A stretch of 64,000 nt of DNA from an uncultured Gemmatimonadota bacterium (GCA_951812955.1 OX638340.1:2432001-2496000); one strand, 5' to 3'; shown: positions 5,430 to 61,542, numbered from the stretch's first letter. Numbers and translations are program-made. The notes: generated by a model from the letters alone, not told the origin.

Positions 5430-5436
5430 AAATGGA

Positions 5437-6174
5437 TTGCGTATCTTTCCTCTCCCTTCCTGTCCAGGACAGACGGGACCTCTTCGAGTCAGCGGCAAAC
5501 TGAAAACCGCACTTTCGAGACGAATCGACGAGATCGTCGAAGGAGGTCTTGTCATTCCAGATGAAAGCGACGTCGACGGCCAGACGCTTCTCGTGGAGTA
5601 CCCTACACTTTACCCTGGAGACAGTGTCGCCTACGTGGCGCCACGGGTACGAATCGAGGCAGGGGCGAGATCGGCGCTGGATCCCAACCTGACCCGTACC
5701 ATCAAACCATTCATCGCGGATGAGGTGCGAGACTTGTCTTTGGCAGTGGAAAACATCCGCGTTATCGCACCAGATCGCACGCTCTGGGAGAAGCTGTTGA
5801 TCCTGCATGGGTTGTACTGCGGATATCGGGACGCACAGCGTCTACCGGCAGACAGAGATCGGATATCCCGCCACTACTACGATGTTGCCATGATAACGGA
5901 GACCGAGTCCGGCAGGGCCGCTCTATCCAACCTTGAATTGATGGATTCAGTTCGTAAACACAACCTTATTGCGTTTCGACAGGCCTGGAAGAAGTTCGAA
6001 GAGGCCGTACCTGGACGGGTGAAACTGGTTCCTCAGTTGGAACTGCACATGCTGATCGAGCGGGACTATGAAGCCATGCAGGACATGATCCTGGGTGACG
6101 TCCCGAATTTCAGATGGATCGTGGACCAATTGATGCATGCCGAAGCCATTGTCAATGGAACTACGAGAAGTTAA
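5437..6174 (+). CDS. abiEii: AbiEii/AbiGii-family nucleotidyltransferase toxin (DUF1814), TTG start, possibly N-terminally degenerate
   Basis: …IRVIAPDRTLWEKLLILHG… and …RHYYDVAMI… are typical DUF1814 C-terminal motifs. The ORF begins with TTG. The canonical N-terminal GGTAL-type motif is not obvious (GKLKTAL instead). Confidence 0.55.
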   Translation: MRIFPLPSCPGQTGPLRVSGKLKTALSRRIDEIVEGGLVIPDESDVDGQTLLVEYPTLYPGDSVAYVAPRVRIEAGARSALDPNLTRTIKPFIADEVRDLSLAVENIRVIAPDRTLWEKLLILHGLYCGYRDAQRLPADRDRISRHYYDVAMITETESGRAALSNLELMDSVRKHNLIAFRQAWKKFEEAVPGRVKLVPQLELHMLIERDYEAMQDMILGDVPNFRWIVDQLMHAEAIVNGTTRS

Positions 6175-8106: not shown

Positions 8107-9315
8107 TCACTGTTCGATCCTCGAAGGCGCGTCGTGAAACGCCAGCAGGTCGGGATAGTCGTATGCGTAATGTTCCGGCCGGACCAGTACCCCGTCCCGG
8201 TACAGCGCGGAGACGATGCGGATGGCCTCGGCCAGGAGGCGGTCGGTCTCGCGGATCATCTCATCGCCCTTTGCGAGTTCCGCCCGCACGAGGTTTTCCG
8301 AATGGCACTGCTCGCAGATGCCGGTCATGCGGTCGCGCTCCCGCTGCCAGTCCTCCTGGGTCAGCCGGGCCACGTCGGCCTGCCTGACCACATCCAGTCG
8401 CGGGGTGGGGTTGCCGTCCGGGTCCAGCACGCCAAGTGCCTGGAGGATCGTTGCCCGGTCCTCCGCCCACTGCGGGTCTTCCGGCATGGGAAGTCGGACG
8501 GCCAGGAAACCCCAGGCGGTCCGGACGCCGTGATCTCCCTCGGGCATGTGGCAGGTCTGGCACGTAGGCGCCTGGGCATGCTCGGGCAGCGTGCCGTTCT
8601 GCTTGAGCAGATGCCGCACGCCATGCTTGGAGGACGAGTACATTTCCCACTGGGGATGATCGAACCCCATGTGGCACGTCCTGCACGCCTGGGGCTCCCG
8701 GGCCTCCTTCACAGAAAAGAGATGGCGGGTATGACATACGTCGCAGGACGACAGGCCGAAAAGCCCGTCCTGCGCCTTGATCGTCTTAATCTCCTCTTCG
8801 CTCTTGAGGCCGATGCGGTGGCATCCGCCGCAGCCCTTCATACCCTCAGTCAGGGCCATGGGCAGGAAGTGGGTCGTCGGCATGGCGTTCATGCTGGTCC
8901 AGGCAAGGGCGTGCTTGCCCCCCGCGAACTGTTCCACCTGGATCGGATGGCACGTGGCGCACACGTCCGGGGTCGCGACGCCGGCCAGGGCCACGTCCTC
9001 CTCCGTGCGGTGATCGCCGCCGTGACACATGACGCAGTCCACGCCGTTCGTGCTGTGGGTGCTGAGTTCCCAGTCAATTACGATGCCGGGCGTGGCATCC
9101 TGGTGGCAGGCCACGCAGTCGGACGTGGCCCGCGGTGGATCGGCGGAGGGACCGCAGGCGGCAAGGGACAGCAGGAAGAATGATACGATGAAGAAGGATA
9201 CGATGTTGTTAACAAGGATGGCACGGCATACGCGGTACCTGGTTTTAGCAAGGAAGCGACTCCTGGAAAGCAGAGACGTCAGACTACCGGATTGCCGGGC
9301 CATCTTGTACCTCAT
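8107..9315 (-). CDS. Octaheme c-type cytochrome lipoprotein (HAO/ONR/OTR-like multiheme family)
   Basis: Lipoprotein-type signal (…FFLLSLAACG). Eight CxxCH motifs (CVACH, CVMCH, CATCH, CGGCH, CDVCH, CRTCH, CQTCH, CEQCH) within ~340 residues. It sits immediately upstream of the NrfH-like quinol-dehydrogenase-type gene. Confidence 0.8.
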   Translation of the reverse strand: MRYKMARQSGSLTSLLSRSRFLAKTRYRVCRAILVNNIVSFFIVSFFLLSLAACGPSADPPRATSDCVACHQDATPGIVIDWELSTHSTNGVDCVMCHGGDHRTEEDVALAGVATPDVCATCHPIQVEQFAGGKHALAWTSMNAMPTTHFLPMALTEGMKGCGGCHRIGLKSEEEIKTIKAQDGLFGLSSCDVCHTRHLFSVKEAREPQACRTCHMGFDHPQWEMYSSSKHGVRHLLKQNGTLPEHAQAPTCQTCHMPEGDHGVRTAWGFLAVRLPMPEDPQWAEDRATILQALGVLDPDGNPTPRLDVVRQADVARLTQEDWQRERDRMTGICEQCHSENLVRAELAKGDEMIRETDRLLAEAIRIVSALYRDGVLVRPEHYAYDYPDLLAFHDAPSRIEQ

Positions 9316-10791: not shown

Positions 10792-11733
10792 ATGCATGGC
10801 GCCGAGAACGATATTCCATTTGAAGGCGAGGGGACTCATACAGGCGGGCCGGACCGGGCTGTTGACGATACGATCCGGCTGAACTGGCGCGAGAAGCTGG
10901 TTGAAGTCGGCCTGATGATGGTAATGTTCACGTGCGGTATGCTGATCGGAATGTTCGTCATCATAGCTTCTCTGCTTACCATGCGAAGTACATTCGAGCA
11001 GTTGGCCCCGGGATTCATGGAAGTAGGTTCGATTCCGCTCATCATTCTGGTCGTCGTGGCCGTGATCGTCGGGAATATCTGTTCGTTCAGCTGCGCTCCC
11101 TACCTCATACGTCTCTTCTTTCGGGGCTACGAGTTGAAGGACGAGCGGATCGACCGCGCTTTGGATCACCTGATTTCCGTGACCGGGATGGAAATCAGGG
11201 CCGAACGGATCTACGCCATAAAGGGCAGGACGGCCAACGCCGTCGTGGCCGGCCTCTTCCGGAAGGGTCAGTACATCTTCTTTACCAACAGGCTTCTGGA
11301 GAGAATGAGAGAAGGAGAGATCATGGCGATCCTGGCGCACGAACTGGCCCATGTGCGGCACCGGCACATGCCGAGGATGATGCTGGGCATCGTGCTATGG
11401 ACCCTCGGCATCCAGGTATTCTTCTGGCTGATTGGCTTCCAGGTTTACTTCGAATCGATCGAAGAATCCTGGAAAATGTGGGTGTATGGCGGAATAAATG
11501 CCTTGAACTTCTACCTGCTTGTTTTCCTCGTTCTGTTCCCGCAGTCGAGGCGTCACGAATACGAGGCGGATGAGGCCGCCGCCCGGTGGGTGGGCATAAG
11601 CCAGTACAAGCAGGCCCTTTACCGGTTGCATCAATTGAATGACCAACTGAAACCACCGAGGAAGATCCTGTCGAAGCTAAGTACCCATCCGACGCTTCAG
11701 CAGAGGCTGGAGCGGGTGGGGAATCTGGAATAA
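10792..11733 (+). CDS. M48-family (Ste24/HtpX-type) zinc metalloprotease, copy A
   Basis: Two N-terminal TM helices, then HELAHVRHRH (HExxH), two more TM helices, and a downstream EYEADE third zinc ligand. ~55% identical over its length to the 16245..17192 protein. Confidence 0.8.
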   Translation: MHGAENDIPFEGEGTHTGGPDRAVDDTIRLNWREKLVEVGLMMVMFTCGMLIGMFVIIASLLTMRSTFEQLAPGFMEVGSIPLIILVVVAVIVGNICSFSCAPYLIRLFFRGYELKDERIDRALDHLISVTGMEIRAERIYAIKGRTANAVVAGLFRKGQYIFFTNRLLERMREGEIMAILAHELAHVRHRHMPRMMLGIVLWTLGIQVFFWLIGFQVYFESIEESWKMWVYGGINALNFYLLVFLVLFPQSRRHEYEADEAAARWVGISQYKQALYRLHQLNDQLKPPRKILSKLSTHPTLQQRLERVGNLE

Positions 11734-11799: not shown

Positions 11800-13023
11800 T
11801 CACTCCATGTTCATCGCATCCACCGGGCTCAGCTGCGAAGCCTTCAAGGCGGGATATATTCCGGCACATAGACCTATTGCCAGTGAGATCGCCAGCGACA
11901 AGAGGATATTGGAAACCGACGTACCAGTCGTGAAAGTGAGATCCAACACCTGATTCAATACGAACGAGAAAACCGATCCAAGGCCCAGTCCCAGCAATAT
12001 CCCCAGTAACCCCCCTAAAGCACTGATACCTATGGCTTCCAGCGTGAATTGATTCACGATATCGACGTGTCTGGCTCCTACTGACTTCCTAATACCTATT
12101 TCCCGCCTTCGTTCCGTTACGGAGACCAGCATCATATTCATGATCCCGATTCCACCCACCATCAGTGAGATGCCCGCCACGGCGGCAATCGCCGACTTAA
12201 CGGCGTTAATCACACCTCCTATCTGGTCCATTGCGTTTTTTCCGCTGACTATGTCAAATCCGGGCGCATCACCATGGATTGTCTTCAAGGCTGCCTCAAT
12301 GTCATCCACCGCAATTTCCATGACACTCGAATCCACTACCTTGATGGTCAAAAGGTCGAAGCCTTCATGGCCAAGCATCCTTTTCTGGACCGTCGTTATC
12401 GGAACGAAGACCCGGTTGCCCCAACTTTCATTGAAAACAATCTTTGGCTTCATGACGCCGATCACGGCAAATCTCTGACCATTCAGTTTCACTTCCTTGC
12501 CGACCGGATTGGTATCGTCAAACAATCTAGCGGCCAGTTCATCGCCCAGTACACATACTTTTCGCCAGCGCTTGACGTCGCGGTCGGTAATGAATCGACC
12601 CGTGGAAACCGACCACTGGTACATCTCCGGAAATGAAGGCGTCGTGCCGTACAACATCCCTCCATGCGACGTTTTTGCGAATCTGAGATCTACATTCAAT
12701 GTCGCGGCGGGGACCAATTGGCGCACGGCGCTCGATCTTCTCCCGATTTCCAGCATATCCTGCCAGACAAGATGCTCGTAATCGGATACAGGCATCCAAC
12801 TTCCTTCCCTATTTTCGTATCTCGATGGACTCACCCACACCATGGAGCCGCCACGTACGGATTCGAATTCATCCATCACCATGTCGTGAAGCCCCTCTCC
12901 AATCACGATGATGCCTGTTACAGCGCCAATGCCGACCGCAATCCCCAGCAGCGTCAGGACCGAACGCAGCCTGTAGTGAACGAGATTGGTAAACACCGTG
13001 TGGACATGGTGCGCTAAAGACAT
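11800..13023 (-). CDS. MacB/FtsX-type ABC transporter permease (YknZ-like), no fused or adjacent ATPase
   Basis: N-terminal TM1 ([18 protein letters not shown]), a large periplasmic domain, and three C-terminal TM helices with the FtsX motif region (…[14 protein letters not shown]…). No Walker motifs. Confidence 0.8.
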
Positions 13024-13045
13024 AGACGACAGGGTCCGTAGAGGA

Positions 13046-14260
13046 CTATTGGTGTTTCGATTTCAGCGCGATATGAACCGCTCTTGCATCCGCTGCGATG
13101 TGTGCTCCAGGTTCGATACCGGACAGAATCTCCACATATTCAGTCGATTCAATTCCGATCTCGACCATGGTGGATTCCAGGTATTCTTCCGGACATTTCG
13201 ACATACCAGGGTCCATCGAAGTACAACGATAAACCACGTACGGCTTGCCGGGCACCGACCCAGTAGATGCTGTTTCCTTCTGTTCAGTGGCTATACCTAC
13301 GTAATCACCCATTTCCATGACCGAAGATGCAGGCGCAAGCAGCGAGCCTTCATTCTTCTCCAACACGATGTCGATATCGCAGGACATTCCCTGCTGCAAA
13401 TCCAGCGATGGATTCGATATCACGATTTCGGCATCGAACGTTACAAGCGCACTCCCGGGTTTCCGCACACCGATAGGCGCCAACCGCTCAACATGCCCGC
13501 TGTACAATGTGTCCGGGTAGGCATCGACACGAATCCGTACTTCCTGTCCAGGCCTGACCCTGCCTGCGTCAATTTCCCCAATGGCCGATTTGACGATCAT
13601 TCTGTCCGGATCGCCAATATGAAACATCTCCGTACCGCCGGTATACGAGGAGGTGCCCGATGCTACGACCTCGCCCGTTTCCACCATGCGGGCAACGACG
13701 ATGCCGTTCAAGGGAGACAGGATCCTCACGGCATCATGCGTTCTGTTGGAATCCACCTCAACATTAACCTTCAGTTCAAGTATTTTGAGTTCGAGTTCCG
13801 CCATGTTGAGATTATGATTGGCCTTGGTTTTTTCAATCCTTGCCTTGTCGAATTCCGCAGACGATATCAGGGATCTCTCATGTAATTCACGCTTTCTTTT
13901 AAAGGAGATCTCTTGTTCTGACAGATCTATTCGAGCGCCTTCAACTCTGGCGCGCTGCCGGGACAACTGAAGGGACTGAGACGGATCCGGCTCTATCACG
14001 GCAAGGACATCCCCCTTTGATACCGTATCCCCTACATCGGCGTGAATATGCCTGATTTCCCCGGATATGGTGGGTTTGACCATGACGGTCCTGACAAACT
14101 GGATCGTACCTGTCTCCACCAGGATATCGGAGATCGTTCCATGTTGAACCTGGAGTATTGGGAACGAGGCAACCCGGACCGTGGAACTGTAAACAAAGTA
14201 CAGTAGAACGGCTACGAGAATGCATGCCGATACGCAGACAATGACTATGCGTTTTTTCAT
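13046..14260 (-). CDS. HlyD/MacA-type periplasmic adaptor (membrane fusion protein, YknX-like)
   Basis: N-terminal anchor [22 protein letters not shown], a coiled-coil segment ([19 protein letters not shown]…[12 protein letters not shown]), and barrel/lipoyl motifs (…VKPTISGEI…[13 protein letters not shown]). Confidence 0.8.
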
Positions 14261-14281
14261 GTCAGCGGTGATTTCCAGGAA

Positions 14282-15013
14282 TTACACGTAAACGGTACCA
14301 AGGTTCTCCATGGTCCTGCGAATGACAATCCACATGCACCACACTAGTCCCAACGCGAACCATGTGAGTATAACCGATCCCTGGAAAGTCCGTGCAAGAC
14401 CCAACCCCAGCAGGTAAAGAAACCAAATACCGAAAAAGTCGACACCTGTAAGGAACAGGCCCGGGAGGGTTTCGAGGTCTGCATCGTCGAGCAACACACC
14501 AGGATGGATAGCCGGATCTAGCGACCCCCAAAGCAGAACCAGCGTGGTTTTGACGACTGTTTCGGGTACGAGGACAAGCAAGGCGTAGCCGGTAATCGGC
14601 AGAACCTTGTTGTACGGCAGGAGCTTACCGAAGATCAATTCTCCGCTGTGTTTCCCTACAACCGACCACGCGACAAGCATAAGGCAGACGCTGGCCGGCA
14701 TGATTAAAAGACCGGCGAGTTGCCTATGGTCGAATTTCGAAGCCTCGCGCAGGATAATAGATTGCTGAAACATACTGAGATTCGAATAGGACTGGAGTTC
14801 CATTTCGATCAACGCCCGTTCCGTATCCAGCGCAACCGGCAAAGTTACTATCCCGGCGATCAGTACGACCGACACGATAACGATCAGAATCAGGATCGAC
14901 TCAGAGGCGGACTGTTCAGTTTCAAGATCCGCAAATGCCCTCCCGGGACTGTAATAGACTCGTAGCCATCGCCTGGCATATCTTCCCATATCTATTGACG
15001 CGCTCAAGGACAT
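14282..15013 (-). CDS. Yip1-domain family membrane protein (YknW-like)
   Basis: The N-terminal …RVYYSPGRAFADLE… followed by 5 hydrophobic helices is the bacterial Yip1-domain pattern. It sits directly upstream of the HlyD and FtsX genes, as in B. subtilis yknWXYZ. Confidence 0.55.
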   Translation of the reverse strand: MSLSASIDMGRYARRWLRVYYSPGRAFADLETEQSASESILILIVIVSVVLIAGIVTLPVALDTERALIEMELQSYSNLSMFQQSIILREASKFDHRQLAGLLIMPASVCLMLVAWSVVGKHSGELIFGKLLPYNKVLPITGYALLVLVPETVVKTTLVLLWGSLDPAIHPGVLLDDADLETLPGLFLTGVDFFGIWFLYLLGLGLARTFQGSVILTWFALGLVWCMWIVIRRTMENLGTVYV

Positions 15014-16224
15014 AGATCTCCCATGATGACCAGATGGTAGTAGCTGTGTCCGCCACCGGACCAGAATGGACTATTCCAGGGCCAGAACCTCCACCAGATT
15101 GGTTTGGAACGGGTATATGCACCTTGGCGAAAACTCTCCAGGAAGGTACTGATGTGATGTACCGTGCTCGTGGAAAGATGCCTGCCGACTCTCTTGGGAT
15201 GGGATTCCACGCCGAGGTAAGAACGAATCATAAGGCTGTGTTCATCGATTGGAAGCGCATCGACATTCTCGACGTACCAATTGAACACGTAGTAGAAGTG
15301 GTTTATGAGGAAGTACTCAACGTTAGAAACATAGAAAACGGAAATGCTCGAGTCGTGGGCTTCAGCGTAAGAACCGATGGCCCTCAACGTCTTCTCGCCC
15401 GCGAAGTTTCCCACGACGGGAATGATCAGGTTCCTGTGATGCAGGCGCTTCACGAACCTGAATGTATCTTCGGTAAACAAGAAACTGGCGAATTCTCCCT
15501 CCACAGTCGTACCTGTCATCAGGTCTTTGAACGAAGGATAGGATAACCCGTTGCCCAGTCGTGTTTCAGCGTATGTAATCGAAAGCTGTTTTTCGTAAAA
15601 CGATCGGTATATGTAGCGCATCCTGTCGAGATCGTACCGATCTTTGATCCCATACATGCCTACTTCCCGACTGAGCCGCCTCCAATTCTGTTTAAAAAAC
15701 AGTGAGTCGGCCGTGGTCGACGATTCGATGTATTCCAGGACTTCCGTAACGGAAGCGGTTTTATCCGGTAATCCGTTCAAAGCCAATCCGACTTCCCGGT
15801 TATGTCTACTGAACAGCAGCATCAGGAAGGATGTCCGGTCCCGGGCCAGGGTAAAAAGGGCTTTGTAGAGGAGATGCTGAAGCAGGTTTTCACGTCGGAT
15901 GTCGACGACAAATGCGATTTCCGGTCTCGTAGCAGCGATGTAGGAGAAGTTCTGTTCCGTACCGACGCCGATATAGACGCCGCCGCGTTTTCCCAGTTCG
16001 ATTACGGTCGGGACAACGTGCAGGTAGGACGATTCATTGGAAACGAAGTTGTCGCCGGGAAAGTGACCGGGATCTTCGGAGAACGCAGTCATGATCCTGG
16101 CGAATTCGGACAGCGCAAGGGAGTCCGGCAACGCCCCGTAAGATGGGAAGCGCAGGTCAGTCAGCGCGCCGATGGTCAGTAGCAGTATGACAACTCGAAT
16201 CAACTTCATCGGTTTTACATCCAT
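15004..16224 (-). CDS. Secreted protein of unknown function
   Basis: Signal peptide MKLIRVVILLLTIGALT. 406 aa, no motifs I can assign. Translationally coupled (overlap) to the Yip1 gene. Confidence 0.5.
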   Translation of the reverse strand: MDVKPMKLIRVVILLLTIGALTDLRFPSYGALPDSLALSEFARIMTAFSEDPGHFPGDNFVSNESSYLHVVPTVIELGKRGGVYIGVGTEQNFSYIAATRPEIAFVVDIRRENLLQHLLYKALFTLARDRTSFLMLLFSRHNREVGLALNGLPDKTASVTEVLEYIESSTTADSLFFKQNWRRLSREVGMYGIKDRYDLDRMRYIYRSFYEKQLSITYAETRLGNGLSYPSFKDLMTGTTVEGEFASFLFTEDTFRFVKRLHHRNLIIPVVGNFAGEKTLRAIGSYAEAHDSSISVFYVSNVEYFLINHFYYVFNWYVENVDALPIDEHSLMIRSYLGVESHPKRVGRHLSTSTVHHISTFLESFRQGAYTRSKPIWWRFWPWNSPFWSGGGHSYYHLVIMGDLCP

Positions 16225-16244
16225 TCCATCTGCATTTGGTTCGT

Positions 16245-17192
16245 CTATTGCGCGTCCAACCTTGACACGCGGTCGAGACGGTTCTGCATCGTGGGGTGGG
16301 TCAGAAGTACTCTAACAAATCTCGGTGGTGGCTTTAAATTGTCATTGACTTGATGAAGACGGTAGAGCGCCCGTTTGTATTGCTCCGTGCCCACCCATTT
16401 TGCCGCCGTAGCATCTGCTTCGTATTCGTTACGCCTCGATAGCGGGTAAATGACCAGAAACATGAGAAGCCACACGTTCACGGCATTTAAAAGCCCGTAC
16501 GTCCACATTTTAAAAGACTCATCCATTGCATCGACATATGCACTGAAATCTAGCAGATACAGGAAAGCCTGCATCCCGCAGACCCACATAAATGTAGCCA
16601 ACTGCATCTTGGGAAGATGCCTGTGACGAACATGGGCCAATTCGTGGGCGAATATTGCCAAAATCTCCTCTTCGTTCGCTTTCGCCAGAAGTTTGTCCGT
16701 AAAGAAGATGTACCTGTTTTTGCGGAAAAGCCCAGTTACCATCGCGTTGGCAGTCCTGCTCTTGATGGTGTACAGGGTTTCTGCCGCAATGTTCATATCG
16801 ACGGACGATATCAGCTTCCCGACTGACCGATCCAGGCGATCGTCCCGTAACTCGTATCCACGGAAGATGAGACGTATCAGATATGGAGAACACAACCATG
16901 CACAGGCGTTCCCTACGGTTGCCGACAGGATGACCAGCAACACAATCGTTAAGGAACCTTGGTCCAATAGACCCGGAACTCCCTGAACAATCATGTCATC
17001 CGCGGTTAACAGAATGCTTAAGAACACGAATACCGCGATCAATATGCCCACCAGGGTCACACTCATGTTCAACCCGATTTCGACCAGTCTGTCGCGCCAG
17101 GTCAACCGGATTGGTTCATCTTTAATCGATGAAGCGCCGCCGGCTACTTCATTTATACGGTGTGTAGGTTCGACCATTATTTCCTTCTTCAA
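16245..17192 (-). CDS. M48-family (Ste24/HtpX-type) zinc metalloprotease, copy B
   Basis: HELAHVRHRH and NEYEAD motifs. Same topology as copy A and clearly paralogous to it (RLTWRDRLVEIGL…PYLIRLIFRGYELRDDRLDR…). Confidence 0.8.
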   Translation of the reverse strand: MKKEIMVEPTHRINEVAGGASSIKDEPIRLTWRDRLVEIGLNMSVTLVGILIAVFVFLSILLTADDMIVQGVPGLLDQGSLTIVLLVILSATVGNACAWLCSPYLIRLIFRGYELRDDRLDRSVGKLISSVDMNIAAETLYTIKSRTANAMVTGLFRKNRYIFFTDKLLAKANEEEILAIFAHELAHVRHRHLPKMQLATFMWVCGMQAFLYLLDFSAYVDAMDESFKMWTYGLLNAVNVWLLMFLVIYPLSRRNEYEADATAAKWVGTEQYKRALYRLHQVNDNLKPPPRFVRVLLTHPTMQNRLDRVSRLDAQ

Positions 17193-17199
17193 ATCAGCG

Positions 17200-17850
17200 T
17201 TATGACATAACGGCTTGTACCAGGCCGTTTAGCGCGACGTATGCCAGGATCACGCCGACTGCTTTGAACCTGGGCATCAAGCAGACCCTGTGCACCGCTT
17301 CGATGGCAAAAGCGACCACCAGGGTCAAAGCAATATACCGACCGTATCGAATCCACTTAAGCAACCCGATATCCTGCATCTTCGTGATCTCGCCGGGCAA
17401 TTGATCGATCGTGGCCAGGTTCGACAGTCCGACATAGACCATCTGGTCTGAAAACGCAAGCATGAGAACGACCGCCATGATCGAATACACTGTAACCGGG
17501 GTGTATGCGACACCCAGCCATCCAAACAGCGCGCGATGACGACGTCTACTGTTCAATAGCGCAACAACGATCATTACAAACAGCCAACCGAACACGAAAA
17601 TCACGATTTCGCCCAATGTGACGCCCAATATCATGGTTATGAACATAACTGAGAATAACTGTGCATATGTTTCGGTAAGATGATCCGGTATTTGTCCTGC
17701 AACTGACCTGAAAGTCAGAAAAAGTACGATCCCGTTCATAAGCAAGTATATGACAAACATGCCGATGCCCGTCGAGAGCGGTTCGGTTACACTGATTGAT
17801 ACCAGCCTGTCGGATGCCCTGCGTGGAATTTCCATTTTCTGTCCGTTCAA
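17200..17850 (-). CDS. Polytopic membrane protein (possibly Yip1-like), hypothetical
   Basis: 216 aa with 5-6 hydrophobic helices. It follows the SpoIIM-like gene with a 4-nt overlap. Confidence 0.45.
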   Translation of the reverse strand: MNGQKMEIPRRASDRLVSISVTEPLSTGIGMFVIYLLMNGIVLFLTFRSVAGQIPDHLTETYAQLFSVMFITMILGVTLGEIVIFVFGWLFVMIVVALLNSRRRHRALFGWLGVAYTPVTVYSIMAVVLMLAFSDQMVYVGLSNLATIDQLPGEITKMQDIGLLKWIRYGRYIALTLVVAFAIEAVHRVCLMPRFKAVGVILAYVALNGLVQAVMS

Positions 17851-18518
17851 TTGATTTTGTTCGCTATTTGTCCAGTGACAAAGGTTTCTATAATCGAAGC
17901 CACCGTGATCAGAAGGAATCCGGTGACGAGTCTGCGTACGTTCAAGGCCAACCTATCCGAATCTATGAGCCATGTATCGAACTTGAGTTTTTGGCAAAAG
18001 AGGACCAGACCTTCGCATCCCACAGCGCCGAAAAACACAAACCCCGCCAACTCAATCACGCCATGGGGTAGAATCAAAGCGGCTATGTGGTATATCGAAG
18101 CACCGGAATCAACCGCAGAAAGCGTAGACCATGCCACGATAGTTCCTGTCCAGCCCAATATCACAACACTGACCAATCCAAAGGACAGAAGGCCCAATAG
18201 TATTTTCATGGAAACGAGGAAATTGTTGCCAATAATGAAACGCCATTCATCCCCACCGTCCAAAAAGGGACGTGAATCCAGCATGAGGGTGGAGCTACCC
18301 GGATCTGTTGGTTTATTCTCAATCATATCCAGGGGCATTGCCGCTCCAACACCCAAGCCGACGATGACAGAAGCAAAGGAAATTAAAATGGGTAGTTTGC
18401 TTGGTTTGCGCGTTGACATAGATCCCACACTAGGTATCATCCATAAATTCCGAGGAAAGGATGGAGGCCATTTTCGGCCTCCATCCATCGTACTTACCAG
18501 CTTGTTAAATTCCAGCAC
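17847..18518 (-). CDS. SpoIIM/DUF95-family integral membrane protein
   Basis: 223 aa with multiple TM helices. Its overall pattern resembles the stage II sporulation protein M / DUF95 family. Its start overlaps the 3' end of the peptide gene by 14 nt. Confidence 0.45.
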   Translation of the reverse strand: MLEFNKLVSTMDGGRKWPPSFPRNLWMIPSVGSMSTRKPSKLPILISFASVIVGLGVGAAMPLDMIENKPTDPGSSTLMLDSRPFLDGGDEWRFIIGNNFLVSMKILLGLLSFGLVSVVILGWTGTIVAWSTLSAVDSGASIYHIAALILPHGVIELAGFVFFGAVGCEGLVLFCQKLKFDTWLIDSDRLALNVRRLVTGFLLITVASIIETFVTGQIANKIN

Positions 18519-18789
18519 CTATAAACACGGCGCCAACACCGGTTCCAATGCCAACGCTGGCCACGAGACCATAGCCGGCTGCTGTCAGCCAACCAATTGT
18601 TCCACCACCAGCCAATCCACCCAGTGCAACACCGCCAACCAGGGACGCATTGGAACCCCACAAGCAGTAAGCGAGGTTCGGCGACGCTGCGATGCCCGGT
18701 GTTTCAGCCAGCGGCGAACTGGCCGTTGAGTTGACGCTCGCGCCTGCGATCAGGGCGAACATGAACACTGAGAGAATGAGTTTTTTCAT
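18505..18789 (-). CDS. 94-aa secreted Gly/Ala-rich hydrophobic peptide precursor (bacteriocin-like / glycine-zipper-like)
   Basis: The ATG at 18789..18787 has a GAGGGG SD 9 nt upstream. Sequence: MKKLILSVFMFALIAGASVNS|TASSPLAETPGIAASPNLAYCLWGSNASLVGGVALGGLAGGGTIGWLTAAGYGLVASVGIGTGVGAVFIGAGI. It has a Sec-type signal, then a ~73-aa uncharged segment with repeated GxxxG motifs. Confidence 0.55.
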   Translation of the reverse strand: MKKLILSVFMFALIAGASVNSTASSPLAETPGIAASPNLAYCLWGSNASLVGGVALGGLAGGGTIGWLTAAGYGLVASVGIGTGVGAVFIGAGI

Positions 18790-19114
18790 AATGATTTGTT
18801 CCCCTCGATTTTGGTATATATCGAACCAATGTGGTTTATCCTTCGAAAGACTCTGTAATGCCGTTAACCTCCTTTCCTCTCTCAAATTAGATTCCATCCG
18901 CCGTTCTCATTCGATGCGACGTCATTCTCTGCCCAGGTACCAGGAAACTCGGTTGCAGGTCTCGGAATGCGCAGTTCCGAGAGAAAGCGTCGATCTCTTA
19001 ACGGGGACTCGACCTAATGTTAAAACTGAATCCAGTAACTGTGACCGCAGCGATCTATCACAATTAGTCTCCGTGAATCCCCGGTTCTCGTAGACAATCT
19101 CTATTTCCTGCAAT

Positions 19115-19143
19115 AAAAAAGCCCGGCGATCGTACCGCCGGGC
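19115..19143 (-). terminator. Rho-independent terminator after the large secreted-protein gene
   Basis: The minus-strand RNA folds as GCCCGGCG-GUACGAU-CGCCGGGC followed by UUUUUU. It lies between the 19275 gene end and the peptide-operon promoter region. Confidence 0.6.
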
Positions 19144-19274
19144 GTTCACATATCCCATTCGCATTCCGATAAACCCAGTATTTTACCTCATCCCCTCCTT
19201 AGCCTCAATCTCGTCTCGTATTCTTTTTAAATCGCTGGATATTGTCTTACAGACTACGGCAGGATTCTTCTTTA

Positions 19275-21884
19275 CTACTCCCCGTCCCCATCCCCCACCG
19301 CATCCAGCAGCGCTTCCCGCGTCATGCCATCGGGAGGCGTGTTTAGGCCCGATTCCTCGCCCGGGTCGGCGACGAGCCAGATGCCGCGCTCGAGGGCGTA
19401 GCCATCTCGTTCGGAGGCCTTTTGGAGGAGTTCCTGCAGGTCTTCGCCATCCATCAGGCCCAGCAGCCCGACGGGGATCACCCGGGCGGAGATTCCCCTT
19501 TCGCGCAGGAAGCCCGCGTACCAGTCGGGAGGACGTTCATAGGAGAACACGAGAAAGGGGCGTTCCGGCGTGCCGGCGCCCCGCCAGAATCCCAGGCGAT
19601 ACCAGTCCGGCCGCAGGGAGCGGACGAAGGCGCCGTGGCGCAGCCGGGGATTGATTTCGTCCATGGACTGCCGGTACAGCGTGCCGAGGCGCTCCGCGTT
19701 GGCTTCCTGGAGCTGGATATAGGTCTCGAGGTATCCCGACTTGAGCAGCCACTCGAACCGGTCTTCCCGGTCCAGTCCCATGAGCGACCTGAATTCGTCG
19801 CCGTGGTACAGACCGTTCCGGACGAGATGCCGGATGAAGTACCGGAAATGCAGGTCGTCGAAGACGTCGGTCGCGGCATAGGCGTGCCGCGGACGCGTGA
19901 TATGGGGATCCCAGTCGTGCACGATGGCCTGCGGGGCCCCCTGGAGGCGGCTGTGCCGGGCGATGGCGCGGGCCGGCTCAAAGAGGTGGCGGTTCAGGTA
20001 TGCCATGTCGAGCCGGGAAGGCAGGTCGACGTCCTCCCCGCGGGCGTTCAGGGCGGCTGCGTAGTCGCCGGTGATCTCGCGCTCGCGAGGGGCGCTGACG
20101 CCGGCGTACCAGGCCGTCGGTGTGCCGCCCACGCGGCTGAGGATGGGCATGGCCCACGATTCGAAACGCACGTCGCCCGTCACCGCCGCGCCCCCGGTGT
20201 AACTGGCAGCCGGCGCCACGGTCCAAAGGAAGTCCATCCCGAGGCCGGGCAACGTTCCGGCGAGTTCGGACACGTGTTCATGCCGGCGGGCGATGAAATC
20301 CCAGACGCCTCGAAGCGGTACGGCATCCGTCGTGCCGGTAGAGAGGCCGGCGTCTGCCGAGTCGCCGGGACTGGGGCGGGCTTCGGCGTCCACGCTGGCG
20401 TCTGAGCCGGAACCCGGACCAGCGCCCAGCTCTGCACTTGAACCTGTGCCGGCTCCGGAACCCGTGCCGTCGCCTGTGCCCGCGCCGTCGCCTGTGCCCG
20501 CGCCGGGTCCGTCATCCGGACCGGACGCCGCGCTGCTGAGCACCCGGACCCGTTCGGGCGCCGCCGTCCTTATGGATACGTTGTTGAGGGAGAAATCCGG
20601 TTTCCGGTTGCCGGGCATCTGGGCCGTGGCATAGTCGTGTTCGGGAGACCAGTCTCCGGGGGAATCGACCAGCGCGCGGACGTAGCTCGCGAGTCCGTCC
20701 ATAAAATCATCCAGTCCTTCGAGATCGGCTTCCCGGGGGCGGATGCCCAGGGGCGGCAAGGGCCGGTCGAGCCCGGATAGCACCTGGCGGTCAACGGCAA
20801 GGACGAATCCCTCGTTCAGCCGGCCGGTCCGTCCCGCGGCCGCTACCGCCATGCGGCCGAAGGTCTCCTCGTCGCCTCGCATGGTTTCCAGGTCTTCGGC
20901 CGACCCGATCTCTTCCCGGATCTCCCGGTCGGCGAAAGCGGCGGCGATGATCTCCACCGGAACGCCCACCAGCGCGTATTCGGATCCCCAGCGGTTTCCG
21001 GACATGCGCACGGTCAGCGTGTCCTTCGCATCTGAAACGCCTTCCACCCTGCCCTTGAATCTCGCCGCGGTCCAGTCCACCGGCACGAGCCGATCCCGGT
21101 TCCGGTACTGCAGGCTGGTCCGCAGCTCCTGGTCGCCGCGCAGCAGCAGTTCGACGTCTTCTCCCGCAATCGCGTCCGCGGGGGAGATACGCAAGGTACG
21201 CCGGACTACGCGGTATTCGGGTTCGGGTTCGGGTGCGGGTTCCGGTTCGATCTCCTCTCCAGGGTCCGGCGCTTGAGGTTCCACGAGCAGCGGCTCGGCA
21301 CCGTCGCCCACGAGCAGCCGGGTGCCGGCGCGGGCGGCCACGCTGCCGTCCATGCCCCGCCCGACCGGGTGGCCGTCGGCAATTTCGAAATAGACCACGG
21401 GGTTCAGGACTGGACTGGTTTCGTGGTCGGCGTTCAGCGCGTGCAGGTTGATGTTCAGACGGGCCAAGATCTCGTTGAACTGATACCGGTCGTGGACGCC
21501 GGGATTGACCTTCCTCCGCTCGCTGTAGGGCCCGTCGGAGGGCATCGCCAGCACGAGCACTTTACCCCGCGACACGAAGTTGATGACCAGGTCCACTTCC
21601 TGGATGCTCATGCCCGGATCGCCGCCGCCCAGAAGCACGATGGCGTCGTAGTCCCGGGCGTCCCGTTCGACCATGGCCGGATAATACGGCCGGTAGTCGA
21701 CGTCGAACCCCGCTTCCGAGAACGCCTGTATCATCCCGGTGTGCTCTTCCGGATAGGCCATGGCGTATTCGACGACGAGCAGGCGGGGATCGCCGTTCGG
21801 CCCGGCGGACGGCTCCTGCCTCGCGCTTGCGGAGTAATTGGGCGCCAGGAATACAATCAGGCAGACAATCAGTTTGATTCGCAT
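19275..21884 (-). CDS. Large secreted protein of unknown function with Gly/Thr/Asp-rich repeat linker
   Basis: Signal peptide MRIKLIVCLIVFLAPNYSASA. 869 aa. The internal low-complexity repeat is GAGTGDGAGTGDGTGSGAGTGS. High GC. Confidence 0.6.
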   Translation of the reverse strand: MRIKLIVCLIVFLAPNYSASARQEPSAGPNGDPRLLVVEYAMAYPEEHTGMIQAFSEAGFDVDYRPYYPAMVERDARDYDAIVLLGGGDPGMSIQEVDLVINFVSRGKVLVLAMPSDGPYSERRKVNPGVHDRYQFNEILARLNINLHALNADHETSPVLNPVVYFEIADGHPVGRGMDGSVAARAGTRLLVGDGAEPLLVEPQAPDPGEEIEPEPAPEPEPEYRVVRRTLRISPADAIAGEDVELLLRGDQELRTSLQYRNRDRLVPVDWTAARFKGRVEGVSDAKDTLTVRMSGNRWGSEYALVGVPVEIIAAAFADREIREEIGSAEDLETMRGDEETFGRMAVAAAGRTGRLNEGFVLAVDRQVLSGLDRPLPPLGIRPREADLEGLDDFMDGLASYVRALVDSPGDWSPEHDYATAQMPGNRKPDFSLNNVSIRTAAPERVRVLSSAASGPDDGPGAGTGDGAGTGDGTGSGAGTGSSAELGAGPGSGSDASVDAEARPSPGDSADAGLSTGTTDAVPLRGVWDFIARRHEHVSELAGTLPGLGMDFLWTVAPAASYTGGAAVTGDVRFESWAMPILSRVGGTPTAWYAGVSAPREREITGDYAAALNARGEDVDLPSRLDMAYLNRHLFEPARAIARHSRLQGAPQAIVHDWDPHITRPRHAYAATDVFDDLHFRYFIRHLVRNGLYHGDEFRSLMGLDREDRFEWLLKSGYLETYIQLQEANAERLGTLYRQSMDEINPRLRHGAFVRSLRPDWYRLGFWRGAGTPERPFLVFSYERPPDWYAGFLRERGISARVIPVGLLGLMDGEDLQELLQKASERDGYALERGIWLVADPGEESGLNTPPDGMTREALLDAVGDGDGE

Positions 21885-22296: not shown

Positions 22297-24681
22297 TTGA
22301 GTGCTCGCGACGATCCGGTACCGGAGATACAGGCGTTGCGCGCACGCAACGACGCGCTCAACGCGGCGATCCTGCGTATCAACGCAAGCCTGGACCTCGA
22401 AAACGTCCTCAGGGAGGTCGTGGAGAGTGCCAGGGCGCTCACCGGTGCCCGCTTCGGCGCCATCACCACCATCGACGAGACCGGCGTTCTCCAGGACTTC
22501 GTCTCCTCCGGTCTTACCGAAGAGGATCATCGGCGCATGGTGGACTGGCCGGAAGGGCCGCAACTCTTCGAACACTTCCGCGACCTGCCGGGACCGCTGC
22601 GGCTCGCGGACATGTCCGAATACGTGCGCAAAATCGGTTTTTCGGCTGACCGACTGCCGAACGTCCGTTCCTTCCTGGGTACGCCGATGCGTCTTGGTGG
22701 CGAGCACGTAGGCAGCTTCTACCTGGTCGAAACGGCAGGCGGCGAGGAGTTCACGAATGAGGACGAGGAGGCCCTTGTACTGTTCGCTTCACAGGCGGCC
22801 GTCGCGATTGCCAATGCGCGTGCGCACCGTATCGAGCAGCGTACCAGGGCCGACCTCGAAGCGCTGGTCGAGACCTCTCCGGTGGGCGTCGTGGTGTTCG
22901 ATGCCGTGGCGGGCAGGCGGGTGTCATTCAACCGGGAGGCGAAGCGGATCGTGGAGCACCTGCGCATACCGGGCCGATCCTATGAAGCCATACTCGAGGT
23001 GGCGACCTGCCGCTTCGCCGACGGACGCGAAGTCGCGCTGGACCAGCTCTCGCTGTCCCGTGTGCTCAGTGGTTCCGTGACGGTGAAGGCCGAGGAGATC
23101 GTGCTTTCCACACCCGATGGGCGCAGTGTGACGATGCTCGTAAACGCCACCACGATCCGCGGCGAGGACGGCGCGGTTGCGTCGGTGGTGGTCACCATGC
23201 AGGACCTGGCGCCGCTGCAGGAACTGGACCGGACGCGGGCCGAGTTTCTCAGCATGGTGAGCCACGAACTGCGCGCGCCGCTGACTTCCATCAAGGGGTC
23301 GGCGACGACGGTGTTGAACGCCTCACGGGAACTGGACCCGGCCGAAGTCCGCCAGTTCTTCCGTATCATCGATGAACAGGCCAATCTCATGGACAGCCTG
23401 ATCGGCGATCTGCTCGATGCGGGACGCATCGATACGGGCAGTTTGTCTGTCTCCCCCGAACCCTCCGACGTCGGCGCCCTGGTGGACCAGGCCCGCAACA
23501 CTTTCCTGTCCGGAGGCGTCAGACACGACGTACTCATCGACCTGCCGCCCGATCTGCCCCCGGTTCTCGCCGACAGGAAACGCATCGGGCAGGTGCTGAA
23601 CAACCTGCTGTCCAACGCCGCACGCCACTCGGCGGCGACAACGCCCATCCGGATCTCGGCCGAACGGGACGGCGTATACGTCGCGCTCACCGTTTCCGAC
23701 GAGGGCCGGGGCATAGCGCCGAAACTTCTCGGACGGTTGTTTCGCAAGTACGGGCGCACCGAAGAAGACGCAGGCGTGACCGGAGGCCTGGGGCTGGTCA
23801 TCTGCAAGGGGCTGGTCGAGGCACATGGCGGGCGCATACGGGCCGAAAGCCCGGGCATGGGGAAGGGCACGCGCTTCGTCTTCACGATACCTGTTGCGGC
23901 AAAGGGCGGCGAAGACGCAGCGGACGGCGATGCCCGCCAGTCCTCGGGCATACCTTCCGAAGGCCGCCAGCCGACGCCTGTCCTCGTTGTGGACGACGAT
24001 CCACAGACCCTGCGTTACGTGCACGACATTCTCGCCGATTCGGGCTACTCCGCACTGGTCACGGCCGAACACAGGGATATTTCGAAAATCATCGAAGCGG
24101 AGAAGCCCAAACTGGTTCTGCTCGACCTCATGCTGCCCGAAACCGACGGGATCGAACTCATGCAGACTATTCCCGAGCTTGCCATCCTGCCGGTAATCTT
24201 CATCTCGGGCTATGGACGCGACGAGACGATTGCAAGGGCGCTGGAAGCCGGCGCCGAGGACTATATCGTCAAGCCCTTCTCACCGACCGAGCTCACCGCA
24301 CGGATCGGAGCCATCCTCCGCCGACGGGCCAATCCGGAACGCTTCGTGCTCGGCGAGCTGGCCATCGACTACGACCGCCGCGAGGTCGAAATCGCGGGTC
24401 GGCCGGTGCCGCTTACGGCGACAGAGTACGAGGTGTTGCGTGTGCTTTCGCTCTGCGTGGGGCGAATCGCTACCTACGACGCCTTGCTGCGTGAGATCTG
24501 GGGCAGGCGCGGCTTCGGCGACGCGAGACTCGTACGGGCCATCGTCAAGCGTCTTCGGAGGAAGCTCGGCGACGACGCGAACAATCCGTCCTACATCGCC
24601 AACGTGCGCGGCCTTGGCTACCGCCTGATCCGGCCGGCCGGAACGGGGGAATCGGGCGGACCGGGTGGACAGGGCGGATAG
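22297..24681 (+). CDS. Hybrid sensor histidine kinase / response regulator with C-terminal OmpR-PhoB winged-helix DNA-binding domain (GAF-PAS-HisKA-HATPase-REC-trans_reg_C)
   Basis: TTG start with a GGGGAGGG SD. GAF-like N-domain, H-box SHELRAPLTSIKG, G-boxes (…GGLGLVICKGLVEAHGGRI…), REC domain (VLVVDDDPQTLRYV…LVLLDLMLPETDG…), and a C-terminal …LTATEYEVLRVL…YIANVRGLGYRL winged helix. Confidence 0.85.
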   Translation: MSARDDPVPEIQALRARNDALNAAILRINASLDLENVLREVVESARALTGARFGAITTIDETGVLQDFVSSGLTEEDHRRMVDWPEGPQLFEHFRDLPGPLRLADMSEYVRKIGFSADRLPNVRSFLGTPMRLGGEHVGSFYLVETAGGEEFTNEDEEALVLFASQAAVAIANARAHRIEQRTRADLEALVETSPVGVVVFDAVAGRRVSFNREAKRIVEHLRIPGRSYEAILEVATCRFADGREVALDQLSLSRVLSGSVTVKAEEIVLSTPDGRSVTMLVNATTIRGEDGAVASVVVTMQDLAPLQELDRTRAEFLSMVSHELRAPLTSIKGSATTVLNASRELDPAEVRQFFRIIDEQANLMDSLIGDLLDAGRIDTGSLSVSPEPSDVGALVDQARNTFLSGGVRHDVLIDLPPDLPPVLADRKRIGQVLNNLLSNAARHSAATTPIRISAERDGVYVALTVSDEGRGIAPKLLGRLFRKYGRTEEDAGVTGGLGLVICKGLVEAHGGRIRAESPGMGKGTRFVFTIPVAAKGGEDAADGDARQSSGIPSEGRQPTPVLVVDDDPQTLRYVHDILADSGYSALVTAEHRDISKIIEAEKPKLVLLDLMLPETDGIELMQTIPELAILPVIFISGYGRDETIARALEAGAEDYIVKPFSPTELTARIGAILRRRANPERFVLGELAIDYDRREVEIAGRPVPLTATEYEVLRVLSLCVGRIATYDALLREIWGRRGFGDARLVRAIVKRLRRKLGDDANNPSYIANVRGLGYRLIRPAGTGESGGPGGQGG

Positions 24682-54439: not shown

Positions 54440-54495
54440 GCTTTCCCCTTGAACTTGTTATCCCGCGTTCCGGGCGTGCCAGGCAAGCGCCGGTA

Positions 54496-57185
<2,690 letters not shown>

Positions 57186-57194
57186 GCCCGAGTC

Positions 57195-58304: not shown

Positions 58305-58306
58305 CT

Positions 58307-59437: not shown

Positions 59438-59512
59438 AGAGGTACTCCTTTGGGCAATCGTCGCCGGTTGCCTTGTTCGATGCACTCGGCATGGAATGAA
59501 CAAAGGCCGCAA

Positions 59513-60180: not shown

Positions 60181-61542
<1,362 letters not shown>

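Follow-up and report, generated by a model that had tools for sequence, protein, structure and literature searches.

The locus described here raises the question of whether a small, glycine-rich, apparently secreted peptide is a weapon or a working part of the membrane of the cell that makes it. The locus lies in a stretch of 64,000 nucleotides (nt) from an uncultured Gemmatimonadota bacterium (GCA_951812955.1 OX638340.1:2432001-2496000), referred to as the window throughout, in which an earlier note, made from the sequence alone, had pointed out a 94-amino-acid (aa) open reading frame (ORF) at positions 18505 to 18789 and had proposed that it encodes a bacteriocin-like precursor. Comparison with related loci leads us to hold, with moderate confidence, that the gene encodes the precursor of a polymorphic, clade-specific, membrane-active peptide of the bacteriocin or toxin kind, which is accompanied by cognate membrane proteins and the maturation of which we leave unspecified.

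A conserved gene with a constant leader and a hypervariable core

The precursor gene occupies positions 18505 to 18789 of the minus strand as a 285-nt coding sequence (94 codons plus TAA), and its translation is exactly the one quoted in the earlier note. A search of 5.8 billion proteins returned 48 homologs of 90 to 96 aa, all of them annotated as nothing beyond "hypothetical." The reading frame is intact in these homologs although the identity of the core is only ~35%, all indels among them are in frame, and synteny around the gene is kept in all of the 20+ loci read. For these reasons, we regard the precursor gene as real. An upstream in-frame ATG at 18897, which would yield the 130-aa ORF of a mechanical ORF list, was rejected, since indels break its frame in relatives and all homologs start at MKK.

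Read from the sequence, the N terminus has the shape of a Sec signal, as had been claimed: an n-region (MKK) and an h-region of 14 residues are followed by a c-region in which V-N-S precedes T22. The AlphaFold2 model of the precursor placed a helix at residues 2 to 16. An alignment of 50 sequences divided the product into three parts. Residues 1 to 21 (MKKLILSVFMFALIAGASVNS; codons at 18727 to 18789, minus strand), the predicted Sec-type signal, were nearly invariant. Residues 22 to 43 (18661 to 18726) formed a pro-region that was conserved to the same degree as the signal and ended in the motif A-[TS]-P-[NH]-x-x-Y-C-L. Beyond this motif (codons 44 to 94, 18508 to 18660), the Gly/Ala-rich hydrophobic core was hypervariable, except for one Trp and four Gly positions within the last 28 residues; it comprises 47 to 52 aa after the YCL motif, and its C terminus is held in a fixed register (an invariant Gly, one hydrophobic residue, and the stop). 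The leader does carry synonymous differences: its rate of synonymous substitution (dS) equals that of the constant genes of the operon (the backbone), and its ratio of nonsynonymous to synonymous rates (dN/dS) is 0.04 to 0.3. Its conservation therefore reflects selection on the protein. Such protein-level conservation is unusual in a signal peptide. Since the pro-region is equally conserved, the mature product is probably not simply everything that follows the signal peptide.

The 73 residues behind the likely cleavage site V-N-S21|T (residues 22 to 94) include 18 Gly and 13 Ala and are uncharged except for a single Glu, with a computed mass of 6660 Da and an isoelectric point of 4.05. The earlier statement that one Glu is the only charge holds for the core type of the window (type A, with a 94-aa precursor and an uncharged core). 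It does not extend to types B and C, in which D, E, K, or R residues come right after YCL and a Lys comes after the conserved Trp. Type B precursors measure 90 aa, precursor genes often stand in tandem pairs in type C loci, and type A2 constitutes a further core type.

The earlier note had named a structural glycine-zipper lipoprotein as the counter-test to its proposal. Outer-membrane lipoproteins of the SlyB/Pcp/YMGG kind share with the precursor a Gly-rich hydrophobic segment behind a signal peptide. The glycine-zipper models of Pfam matched none of the 49 members scanned (hmmscan at an E value of ≤10), and neither the loci read nor a profile search of 1.84e9 representative sequences revealed the precursor gene outside its cluster. 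Furthermore, the only conserved Cys (residue 42, preceded by Tyr or Leu) lies 25 residues past the h-region of the signal and not adjacent to it, and no lipobox is present. Both the SlyB/YMGG assignment and a lipoprotein in general were thus rejected.

The core is part of an exchangeable cassette

The comparison covered 23 related loci and 11 further metagenome loci. Downstream of the precursor gene, on the same strand, the operon encodes a polytopic membrane protein of the SpoIIM/DUF95 family (17847 to 18428; 193 aa from a conserved GTG; Pfam PF01944, E = 7.6e-14); a Yip1-like polytopic membrane protein, Yip1a (17200 to 17850; weak match to Pfam Yip1, E = 3e-4), which probably starts at the ATG at 17835 and would then measure 211 aa; and an HtpX-like M48 zinc metalloprotease with a HELAH motif, M48a (16245 to 17192; Pfam PF01435, E = 1.8e-28). 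Mosaic identity profiles and identity matrices delimited an exchangeable cassette of ~2.3 kb (approximately 16390 to 18660, minus strand) that comprises the core codons of the precursor, a hairpin behind them, the SpoIIM and Yip1a genes, and all of the M48a gene except its last ~150 nt. At least four deeply diverged cassette types exist.

In loci outside the backbone group of the window, the proteins of the constant genes were ~80% (DUF7790 protein), ~74% (Yip1b), ~77% (adaptor), ~84% (permease), and ~78% (kinase) identical to those of the window. In loci of another peptide type, identity to the window was 40 to 47% for SpoIIM and Yip1a, the latter co-varying with the peptide type, and 57 to 63% for M48a. 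For SpoIIM, identity amounted to 77 to 89% within a type versus 41 to 45% between types. Between types, dS ranged from 1.2 to saturation for the core, SpoIIM, and Yip1a and from 1.0 to 1.3 for M48a, compared to 0.4 to 0.8 for the leader and all backbone genes in the same comparisons.

The distribution of the types did not follow the backbone. Types A, A2, B, and C all occur within one backbone clade (87 to 92% aa identity), and each of the three backbone clades contains type A. Core identity correlated with the identity of SpoIIM plus Yip1a (Spearman coefficient, 0.70) and hardly with that of the backbone (0.19), while leader identity tracked the backbone (0.47). The junctions can be read from L009 and L001, two loci that share a backbone and differ in type: they are 93 to 99% identical from position -460 to ~+70 of the precursor gene, 33 to 60% identical from ~+70 to ~+2400, and 90 to 98% identical again thereafter. 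L009 and the window, which have the same type on different backbones, are 63 to 92% (mostly 75 to 90%) identical across the cassette. The 5′ breakpoint falls inside the precursor gene, at the leader/core junction, and the 3′ breakpoint falls ~2400 nt from the precursor ATG.

Selection was assessed by dN/dS in six independent same-type pairs. The core showed a pooled value of 0.67 and exceeded 1 in four of the six pairs, at a normal core dS. The pooled values of the other genes were 0.25 for the leader, 0.24 to 0.28 for SpoIIM, Yip1a, M48a, and the DUF7790 protein, and 0.14 for the permease (Fisher tests of the core versus other genes, P = 6e-5 to 6e-3). A conserved N-terminal part, a variable C-terminal part that co-varies with its neighbors, and incongruence with the flanks are the features by which a polymorphic toxin-immunity cassette is defined in evolutionary terms, and all three were found here. 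This pattern is the signature that evolution leaves on a bacteriocin accompanied by dedicated immunity or maturation genes.

Expression signals around the precursor gene

A strong Shine-Dalgarno sequence and a position at the head of an operon had been claimed for the precursor gene, and both were confirmed. The Shine-Dalgarno sequence GAGGGG (GAGGAG in most relatives) lies at 18801 to 18806 on the minus strand, 11 nt before the ATG, and occupies invariant columns in all loci. The upstream gene, which encodes an 869-aa protein, ends in a conserved intrinsic terminator (19121 to 19143); therefore, the peptide gene is the first gene of its own operon. Between the two lies a noncoding promoter/5′ leader region of ~330 nt (18790 to 19120, minus strand; alignments A2 and A3), which is as conserved as the coding backbone (mean nucleotide identity, 0.66 to 0.86 across 14 loci) and contains an invariant 7-bp hairpin (TCTCGGA...TCCGAGA, 18960 to 18982). 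An Rfam scan of 18300 to 19400 returned one sub-threshold chance match only, and RNAalifold found almost no covariation in the conserved region; thus, no structured RNA is claimed. The region may hold promoter/operator sites or a structured 5′ untranslated region. A sigma-54 promoter, judged by eye, was rejected since the spacing was wrong. One to three tandem copies, depending on the locus, of an 11-nt direct repeat (ACACGTTCGAT-like) shortly precede the Shine-Dalgarno sequence (~18815 to 18830 in the window, ~9935 to 9975 in L018, and ~9940 to 9975 in L001, L009, L012, and L016); the repeat could be a candidate binding site of the adjacent OmpR-type regulator.

Directly 3′ of the precursor gene, an 11-bp GC-rich stem-loop (GGATGGAGGCC / GGCCTCCATCC) is found at 18459 to 18486 (minus strand). 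Every locus, the remote L030 included, has a strong hairpin behind its last precursor gene, with stem sequences that differ by type; in loci with two precursor genes, the hairpin comes only after the second. None of these hairpins has a clear U-tract, and we therefore read the element as a putative attenuator or mRNA-stabilizing element rather than as a full terminator. The hairpin lies in the gap of 76 nt that separates the precursor gene from the SpoIIM gene. The reported overlap of the precursor stop with the SpoIIM start turned out to be an artifact of calling the longest ORF: the GTG at 18428, conserved in type A loci, gives a protein of 193 aa, in line with its homologs of 190 to 193 aa.

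The backbone of the operon and its relatives

Four constant genes follow the cassette on the minus strand. The DUF7790 protein (15004 to 16224; N-terminal signal or anchor; Pfam PF25046, E = 2.7e-36) is encoded by a gene that ranks among the most conserved of the operon (nucleotide identity, 0.85 to 0.92), and in PDB it matched only 6ulo, an "uncharacterized protein" (E = 7e-11). Yip1b (14282 to 15013) is a Yip1/YknW-like membrane protein (Pfam Yip1, E = 4e-7; NCBIfam YknW_fam, E = 4e-5, below the cutoff). It is followed by a periplasmic adaptor, a membrane-fusion protein of the MacA/YknX/HlyD type (13046 to 14260; TIGR01730, E = 8e-34; MacA, E = 9e-27), homologs of which have a Beta-barrel_YknX domain, and by a MacB-type permease with MacB_PCD and FtsX domains (11800 to 13023; PF12704, E = 1e-40; PF02687).

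The 15 species-level genomes with the locus are metagenome-assembled genomes (MAGs) labeled Gemmatimonadetes or Ca. Latescibacterota, and several of the bin names suggest sponge or coral sources. The gene order was constant in every locus long enough to judge: a gene for the ~860-aa protein is followed by the eight-gene operon, with the precursor gene (one or two copies) and the genes for SpoIIM/DUF95, Yip1a, M48a, the DUF7790 protein, Yip1b, the adaptor, and the permease. The precursor gene adjoins the SpoIIM gene in all 15 genome loci and on every other contig long enough to show its neighbors. Among the 1.84e9 representatives, the precursor profile retrieved only its own family and low-complexity noise; single-sequence and profile searches with SpoIIM retrieved the same subfamily only. 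No relative was found among viral contigs, and PADLOC returned no match.

A metagenome scan with the SpoIIM alignment added two deeper lineages. In the first (G+C content of 0.46 to 0.49; SpoIIM 43 to 51% identical), the whole operon is kept as far as the contigs reach, i.e., through Yip1b. The precursor of this lineage measures 99 aa and differs in its signal peptide; it has the same motif (...ASPNAVYCYL) and a Gly-rich tail, and a 15-bp hairpin is also kept. In the second (G+C content of 0.65; SpoIIM 31% identical), the DUF7790 protein and Yip1b are missing. Its precursor (L034:3306-3791; also L035:2194-2679) measures 161 aa and consists of a signal, the sequence TTPQLCYYL, an acidic middle domain of ~70 aa, and a Gly/Ala-rich hydrophobic C terminus. 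Downstream of it come the genes for SpoIIM, a membrane protein of 219 aa, an M48 protease, an adaptor-like protein, and an FtsX-like permease; a divergent gene upstream codes for a subtilisin-like protease with (GDRI[IV]W)n repeats. From the two lineages, it follows that the ancient core consists of the precursor, SpoIIM, a polytopic membrane protein, M48, the adaptor, and the permease. The oldest sequence feature of the system is the Cys-containing motif behind the signal.

Flanking genes and chromosomal setting

The gene for the 869-aa signal-peptide protein (19275 to 21884, minus strand) lies directly upstream in every locus, and the membership of this protein in the system is uncertain. 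It contains an EPEPAPEPEPE stretch and a low-complexity linker, (GAGTGD)n, had no Pfam, NCBIfam, or PDB match, and is disrupted in L001; the apparent variability of its 3′ end was dismissed as an alignment artifact of intergenic indels and of this disrupted gene. A divergent gene (22297 to 24681, plus strand) encodes a candidate regulator, a one-protein two-component system with the domains GAF-PAS-HisKA-HATPase-REC-Trans_reg_C. Most loci contain this kinase-receiver-OmpR-type regulator as well as a convergent gene for a second M48 protease, M48b (10792 to 11733, plus strand), a paralog ~51 to 55% identical to M48a that is absent from L010 and L022.

A membrane methyltransferase of the PEMT family (ICMT clan, PF04191; 9881 to 10495, minus strand) adjoins the cluster in most loci. 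Together with the two Ste24-family M48 proteases, the two Yip1 proteins, and the invariant Cys, it loosely recalls eukaryotic CAAX processing, which may be mere synteny. Farther downstream, a gene for a multiheme (CxxCH) cytochrome c (8107 to 9315, minus strand) is syntenic in several relatives, and an AbiEi-like (DUF6088/AbiEi_4) and AbiEii nucleotidyltransferase pair (4797 to 6174, plus strand) constitutes a type IV toxin-antitoxin/abortive-infection module.

The gene order dnaA-dnaN-recF-gyrB-gyrA at 51941 to 61542 (minus strand; Pfam) indicates that the window adjoins the chromosomal replication origin, ~40 kb from the peptide operon. The G+C content of the operon is 50 to 52% (12000 to 18000), compared to 60 to 66% in its flanks, yet the operon occupies the same chromosomal site in all relatives. 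The low value may reflect an ancient foreign origin or the codon composition of membrane proteins.

Proposed mode of action and related systems

From the evolutionary pattern and the homologies, we infer a course of export, processing, toxicity, and protection, the first and last steps of which rest on sequence evidence. The operon has its own putative promoter in the conserved 330-nt region, and owing to the hairpin behind the structural gene, precursor transcripts would be more abundant than those of the seven downstream genes. The invariant signal would send the precursor through Sec, with cleavage probably occurring after V-N-S21. The 22-residue pro-region could serve as a constant handle for the DUF7790 protein and the Yip1b/adaptor/MacB-type pump; it would either be removed or be kept as a conserved N-terminal domain, as in pediocin-like peptides. 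With an ATPase and an outer-membrane duct supplied from elsewhere, the pump would take up the hydrophobic peptide in the periplasm or at the outer leaflet and expel it. The variable Gly/Ala-rich C-terminal domain of ~50 residues would enter target membranes as a helical hairpin and permeabilize them, and SpoIIM/DUF95, Yip1a, and M48a would act as cognate immunity and/or maturation factors specific for the core type. To judge from the mosaic junctions, whole cassettes are swapped between lineages by homologous recombination, with the leader and the upstream region as one arm and the 3′ end of the M48a gene together with the DUF7790 gene as the other.

Class II microcins of Enterobacteria (such as MccV and MccH47) are Gly-rich, hydrophobic, un- or lightly modified peptides of 60 to 90 aa from Gram-negative bacteria with an HlyD-type adaptor; they have a double-glycine leader that is cleaved by a C39-peptidase ABC (ATP-binding cassette) exporter, and they are paired with small immunity proteins. 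The window cluster has neither such a leader nor such an exporter. Double-glycine-leader/C39 systems were rejected on the same grounds: the leader is of the n/h/c Sec type, and the cluster encodes no C39 peptidase or ABC ATPase.

The Cdz bacteriocins of Caulobacter crescentus (CdzC/CdzD with the membrane immunity protein CdzI) are hydrophobic, glycine-rich bacteriocins of a diderm (PMC5380434). The system described here resembles them in its small, very hydrophobic, Gly-rich product, in the two tandem structural genes of some loci, and in having candidate membrane immunity proteins and an HlyD-type adaptor in the cluster. It differs, by the description of Cdz, in its Sec-like signal, its MacB-type permease without an ATPase, and its candidate immunity proteins of the DUF95, Yip1, and M48 families.

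Homology links Yip1b, the adaptor, and the permease to YknW-YknX-YknZ, to AS-48E-F-H, and also to MacA and MacB. MacB-family pumps act from the extracytoplasmic side: MacAB-TolC exports the Sec-translocated enterotoxin STII, YknWXYZ protects against SDP, and AS-48EFGH protects against the circular bacteriocin AS-48 (PMC5985334). Both the makeup of the window pump (a Yip1/YknW-like protein, an adaptor, and a permease with MacB periplasmic core and FtsX domains) and the kind of substrate proposed here agree with these systems, the known substrates of which are Sec-exported or membrane-active peptides taken up from the extracytoplasmic side. In contrast to them, the cluster lacks a nucleotide-binding subunit in every locus, and no outer-membrane factor is encoded near the operon.

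The genetic architecture is similar to that of the pneumococcal blp locus, in which conserved regulatory and transport genes flank a variable bacteriocin/immunity region, recombination is leader based, and bacteriocin dN/dS is high and exceeds that of housekeeping genes (PMC4860687). Membrane metalloproteases (CAAX/Abi) are counted among the blp immunity genes (PMC4860687, PMC9298176). The blp system differs in its double-glycine leaders and its peptidase-containing ABC transporter; here, the leader is of the Sec type, and the proteases belong to M48 (Ste24/HtpX) and not to CPBP/Abi.

Points against the bacteriocin reading and alternative explanations

Several observations weigh against a bacteriocin-like peptide. 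Its function is inferred, and its hosts are uncultivated MAGs. The precursor matched no bacteriocin family in Pfam, NCBIfam, or PDB; Pfam and NCBIfam gave no match for any of the 49 members scanned, and a PDB sequence search with the peptide returned nothing. The AlphaFold2 model, built on a 49-sequence alignment, reached a predicted local distance difference test score of 55.7, which was too low for a fold search. The repeated small-xxx-small spacing that had been put forward in favor of a bacteriocin-like peptide did not stand out from composition-preserving shuffles of the core, either for GxxxG (6 observed versus 4.9 ± 1.6; P = 0.35) or for small-xxx-small (14 observed versus 13.7; P = 0.54). 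The 161-aa remote homolog with its acidic domain implies that the family does not consist strictly of peptides. No ORF with Walker A/LSGGQ motifs was found between 9 and 25 kb, and no ABC ATPase domain of Pfam was found in any homologous locus; the only ABC-like Walker A motif in the window lies near 38.5 kb, and the nucleotide-binding subunit may be encoded elsewhere. The M48 catalytic domain, by analogy to the topology of HtpX, is probably cytoplasmic, and a Sec-exported substrate would be periplasmic, which makes the role of a protease puzzling. SpoIIM and Yip1a are large and polytopic, unlike most immunity proteins, and their dN/dS within a type is ordinary (0.25 to 0.28). Finally, the operon, which lies beside the genes for aconitase and GAPDH, occupies the same position (the aconitase-GAPDH side) in every relative read and thus looks less like an accessory island than like a core operon.

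Some of these points would suit an explanation other than a weapon, which we consider unlikely: the product could be a small integral subunit, substrate, or regulator of an inner-membrane SpoIIM/Yip1/M48 complex of the producer, anchored by a Gly-rich C-terminal hairpin, and the cassette pattern could reflect co-evolution of partners. A single conserved chromosomal site is what a housekeeping locus would show; the strongest co-variation of the core is with polytopic membrane proteins, which are under ordinary purifying selection within a type; and a remote homolog of 161 aa and the absence of a match to known toxin families are consistent with a subunit. However, simple co-evolution does not explain why ancient types, saturated in dS, sit in backbones that are 0.5 to 0.7 dS apart, nor does it explain four types within one close clade or the sharp mosaic junctions. 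A core dN/dS near or above 1 argues in the same direction. A hairpin that favors the precursor and tandem precursor genes suit a secreted product better than a 1:1 subunit, and the adaptor and MacB-type pump imply transport out of the periplasm.

The bacteriocin-like precursor of the earlier note is therefore retained in part. What speaks for it, as strong comparative support, is the conserved leader with a hypervariable core, the co-variation with membrane proteins, the incongruent types, the elevated core dN/dS, the hairpin, the MacB/YknWXZ-type pump, and a gene content like that of circular-bacteriocin clusters; the missing ATP-binding protein and the lack of a match to any known class II or circular family speak against it. 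A more specific version of this bacteriocin reading, which we put forward tentatively and regard as rather improbable, is that the locus would found an undescribed class of ribosomal, DUF95-dependent peptide toxins of diderm bacteria. The peptide would be Sec exported and its variable core matured at the invariant ...PNxxYC... junction (for example, by head-to-tail cyclization or a Cys-linked modification), and the DUF95, Yip1, and M48 proteins would mature and neutralize it without a dedicated ATPase.

It is quite doubtful that the product is a head-to-tail circular bacteriocin, in which the leader would be removed near YCL and a core of ~50 to 56 residues would be cyclized and exported via DUF95, as in AS-48, gassericin A, and cerecyclin. 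The likeness to such clusters (AS-48, cerecyclin, and pSCG61) lies in a DUF95/SpoIIM gene that comes immediately after the gene of a small hydrophobic precursor and in two Yip1-family proteins, an HlyD-type adaptor, and a MacB-type permease. The adjacency of precursor and DUF95/SpoIIM was found in all loci, and the PF01944 gene begins 76 nt downstream in the window. The sole plasmid match of the window SpoIIM was its counterpart in a cluster annotated as belonging to the circularin A/uberolysin family, on plasmid pSCG61 of Bacillus thuringiensis (NZ_CP017573.1); the match was weak in the database search (E = 0.1) and clear in the pairwise comparison (E = 4e-8; 28% identity over 93 aa; common LPHGxxE motif). 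The genes of that cluster are arranged in the order HlyD, ATPase, permease, Yip1, Yip1, precursor, SpoIIM, 583-aa membrane protein, and ATPase, and its permease is 29% identical to that of the window over the full length (E = 2e-38). A low-charge, hydrophobic core resembles subgroup II circular peptides, and the C terminus in fixed register would also fit.

On the other hand, the core of 47 to 52 aa is shorter than known circular bacteriocin peptides, which measure 58 to 70 aa; it is Gly-rich and matched no circular-bacteriocin family. Instead of a short non-Sec leader, the precursor has a predicted Sec-type signal and a conserved pro-region. The cluster encodes no large membrane protein like As-48B or CycB, adds two M48 proteases, the DUF7790 protein, and the 869-aa protein, and resides in a Gram-negative-type host. 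A zinc metalloprotease cannot form the acyl-enzyme intermediate of known peptide cyclases. DUF95/SpoIIM is found in almost every circular-bacteriocin cluster (PMC7132975, PMC8534725), and the cerecyclin cluster encodes DUF95, a YIP1 protein, and an ABC transporter (PMC8534725); however, an ATP-binding protein is universal in the reported clusters (PMC8534725) and missing here, and a Sec-type signal is atypical for a process in which circularization is thought to take place in the cell before export (PMC7132975). Because the ATP-binding protein, the As-48B-like protein, and a precursor match are all lacking, the resemblance is one of gene content only.

We give little credence to a signaling or kin-recognition peptide, whether the conserved N-terminal part ends at the invariant Cys and undergoes CAAX-like processing by M48 and the PEMT/ICMT-type enzyme or the variable part defines pherotypes, as in agr or com. 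A Cys-containing motif that sits exactly at the conserved/variable junction and persists in remote lineages, the two M48 proteases, the two Yip1-family proteins, a PEMT-family gene with synteny in most loci, an adjoining sensor kinase/regulator, and discrete allele types reminiscent of pherotype systems would all be expected of it. Yet the kinase does not co-vary with the peptide type (74 to 83% identity between backbone groups). L022, the most divergent locus, lacks both the kinase and the PEMT gene; the latter is also missing from L001, and a prenyltransferase did not turn up. Enzymes of the Ste24/ICMT type act on the cytoplasmic face, while the motif should be periplasmic after Sec export, and a Gly-rich hydrophobic segment of 50 residues is unlike any known pheromone.

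Finally, there is next to no probability that the precursor ORF is a chance ORF or the shadow of a 292-aa plus-strand ORF that overlaps it (17851 to 18729), an explanation already refuted by 48 length-conserved homologs with in-frame indels only, by a leader under purifying constraint at dN/dS of 0.04 to 0.3 with synonymous variation, by the conserved Shine-Dalgarno sequence and start codon, and by the position of the plus-strand ORF itself, which overlaps the SpoIIM gene of the minus strand, a gene with a Pfam match and a dN/dS of 0.28.

Implications for DUF95 proteins and for the family

As a kind, the locus appears from its genes to be a known one, a bacteriocin-like polymorphic peptide locus with accessory genes of the circular-bacteriocin type. 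The combination of a Sec leader, a Cys motif, DUF95, Yip1, and M48 proteins in a swappable cassette, the absence of an ATPase, and a diderm, uncultivated host is unprecedented. If the peptide is a toxin, the locus would represent a new bacteriocin family from uncultivated MAGs labeled Gemmatimonadota/Latescibacterota, with at least four natural specificity types and matched protective genes that have been paired by evolution. The recombination junction at the leader/core boundary provides a signature with which similar cassettes could be searched for.

Here, DUF95 co-varies with the core and the cluster contains no ATPase, which argues for direct recognition of the peptide and not for a function as the membrane domain of an ABC transporter. 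If the locus does belong to a class of DUF95-dependent toxins, DUF95 would recognize the core peptide directly, and machinery of the circular-bacteriocin type would exist outside the Firmicutes. The locus thus constitutes a natural experiment on what DUF95 proteins recognize, of relevance to specialists in bacteriocins and in ribosomally synthesized and post-translationally modified peptides.

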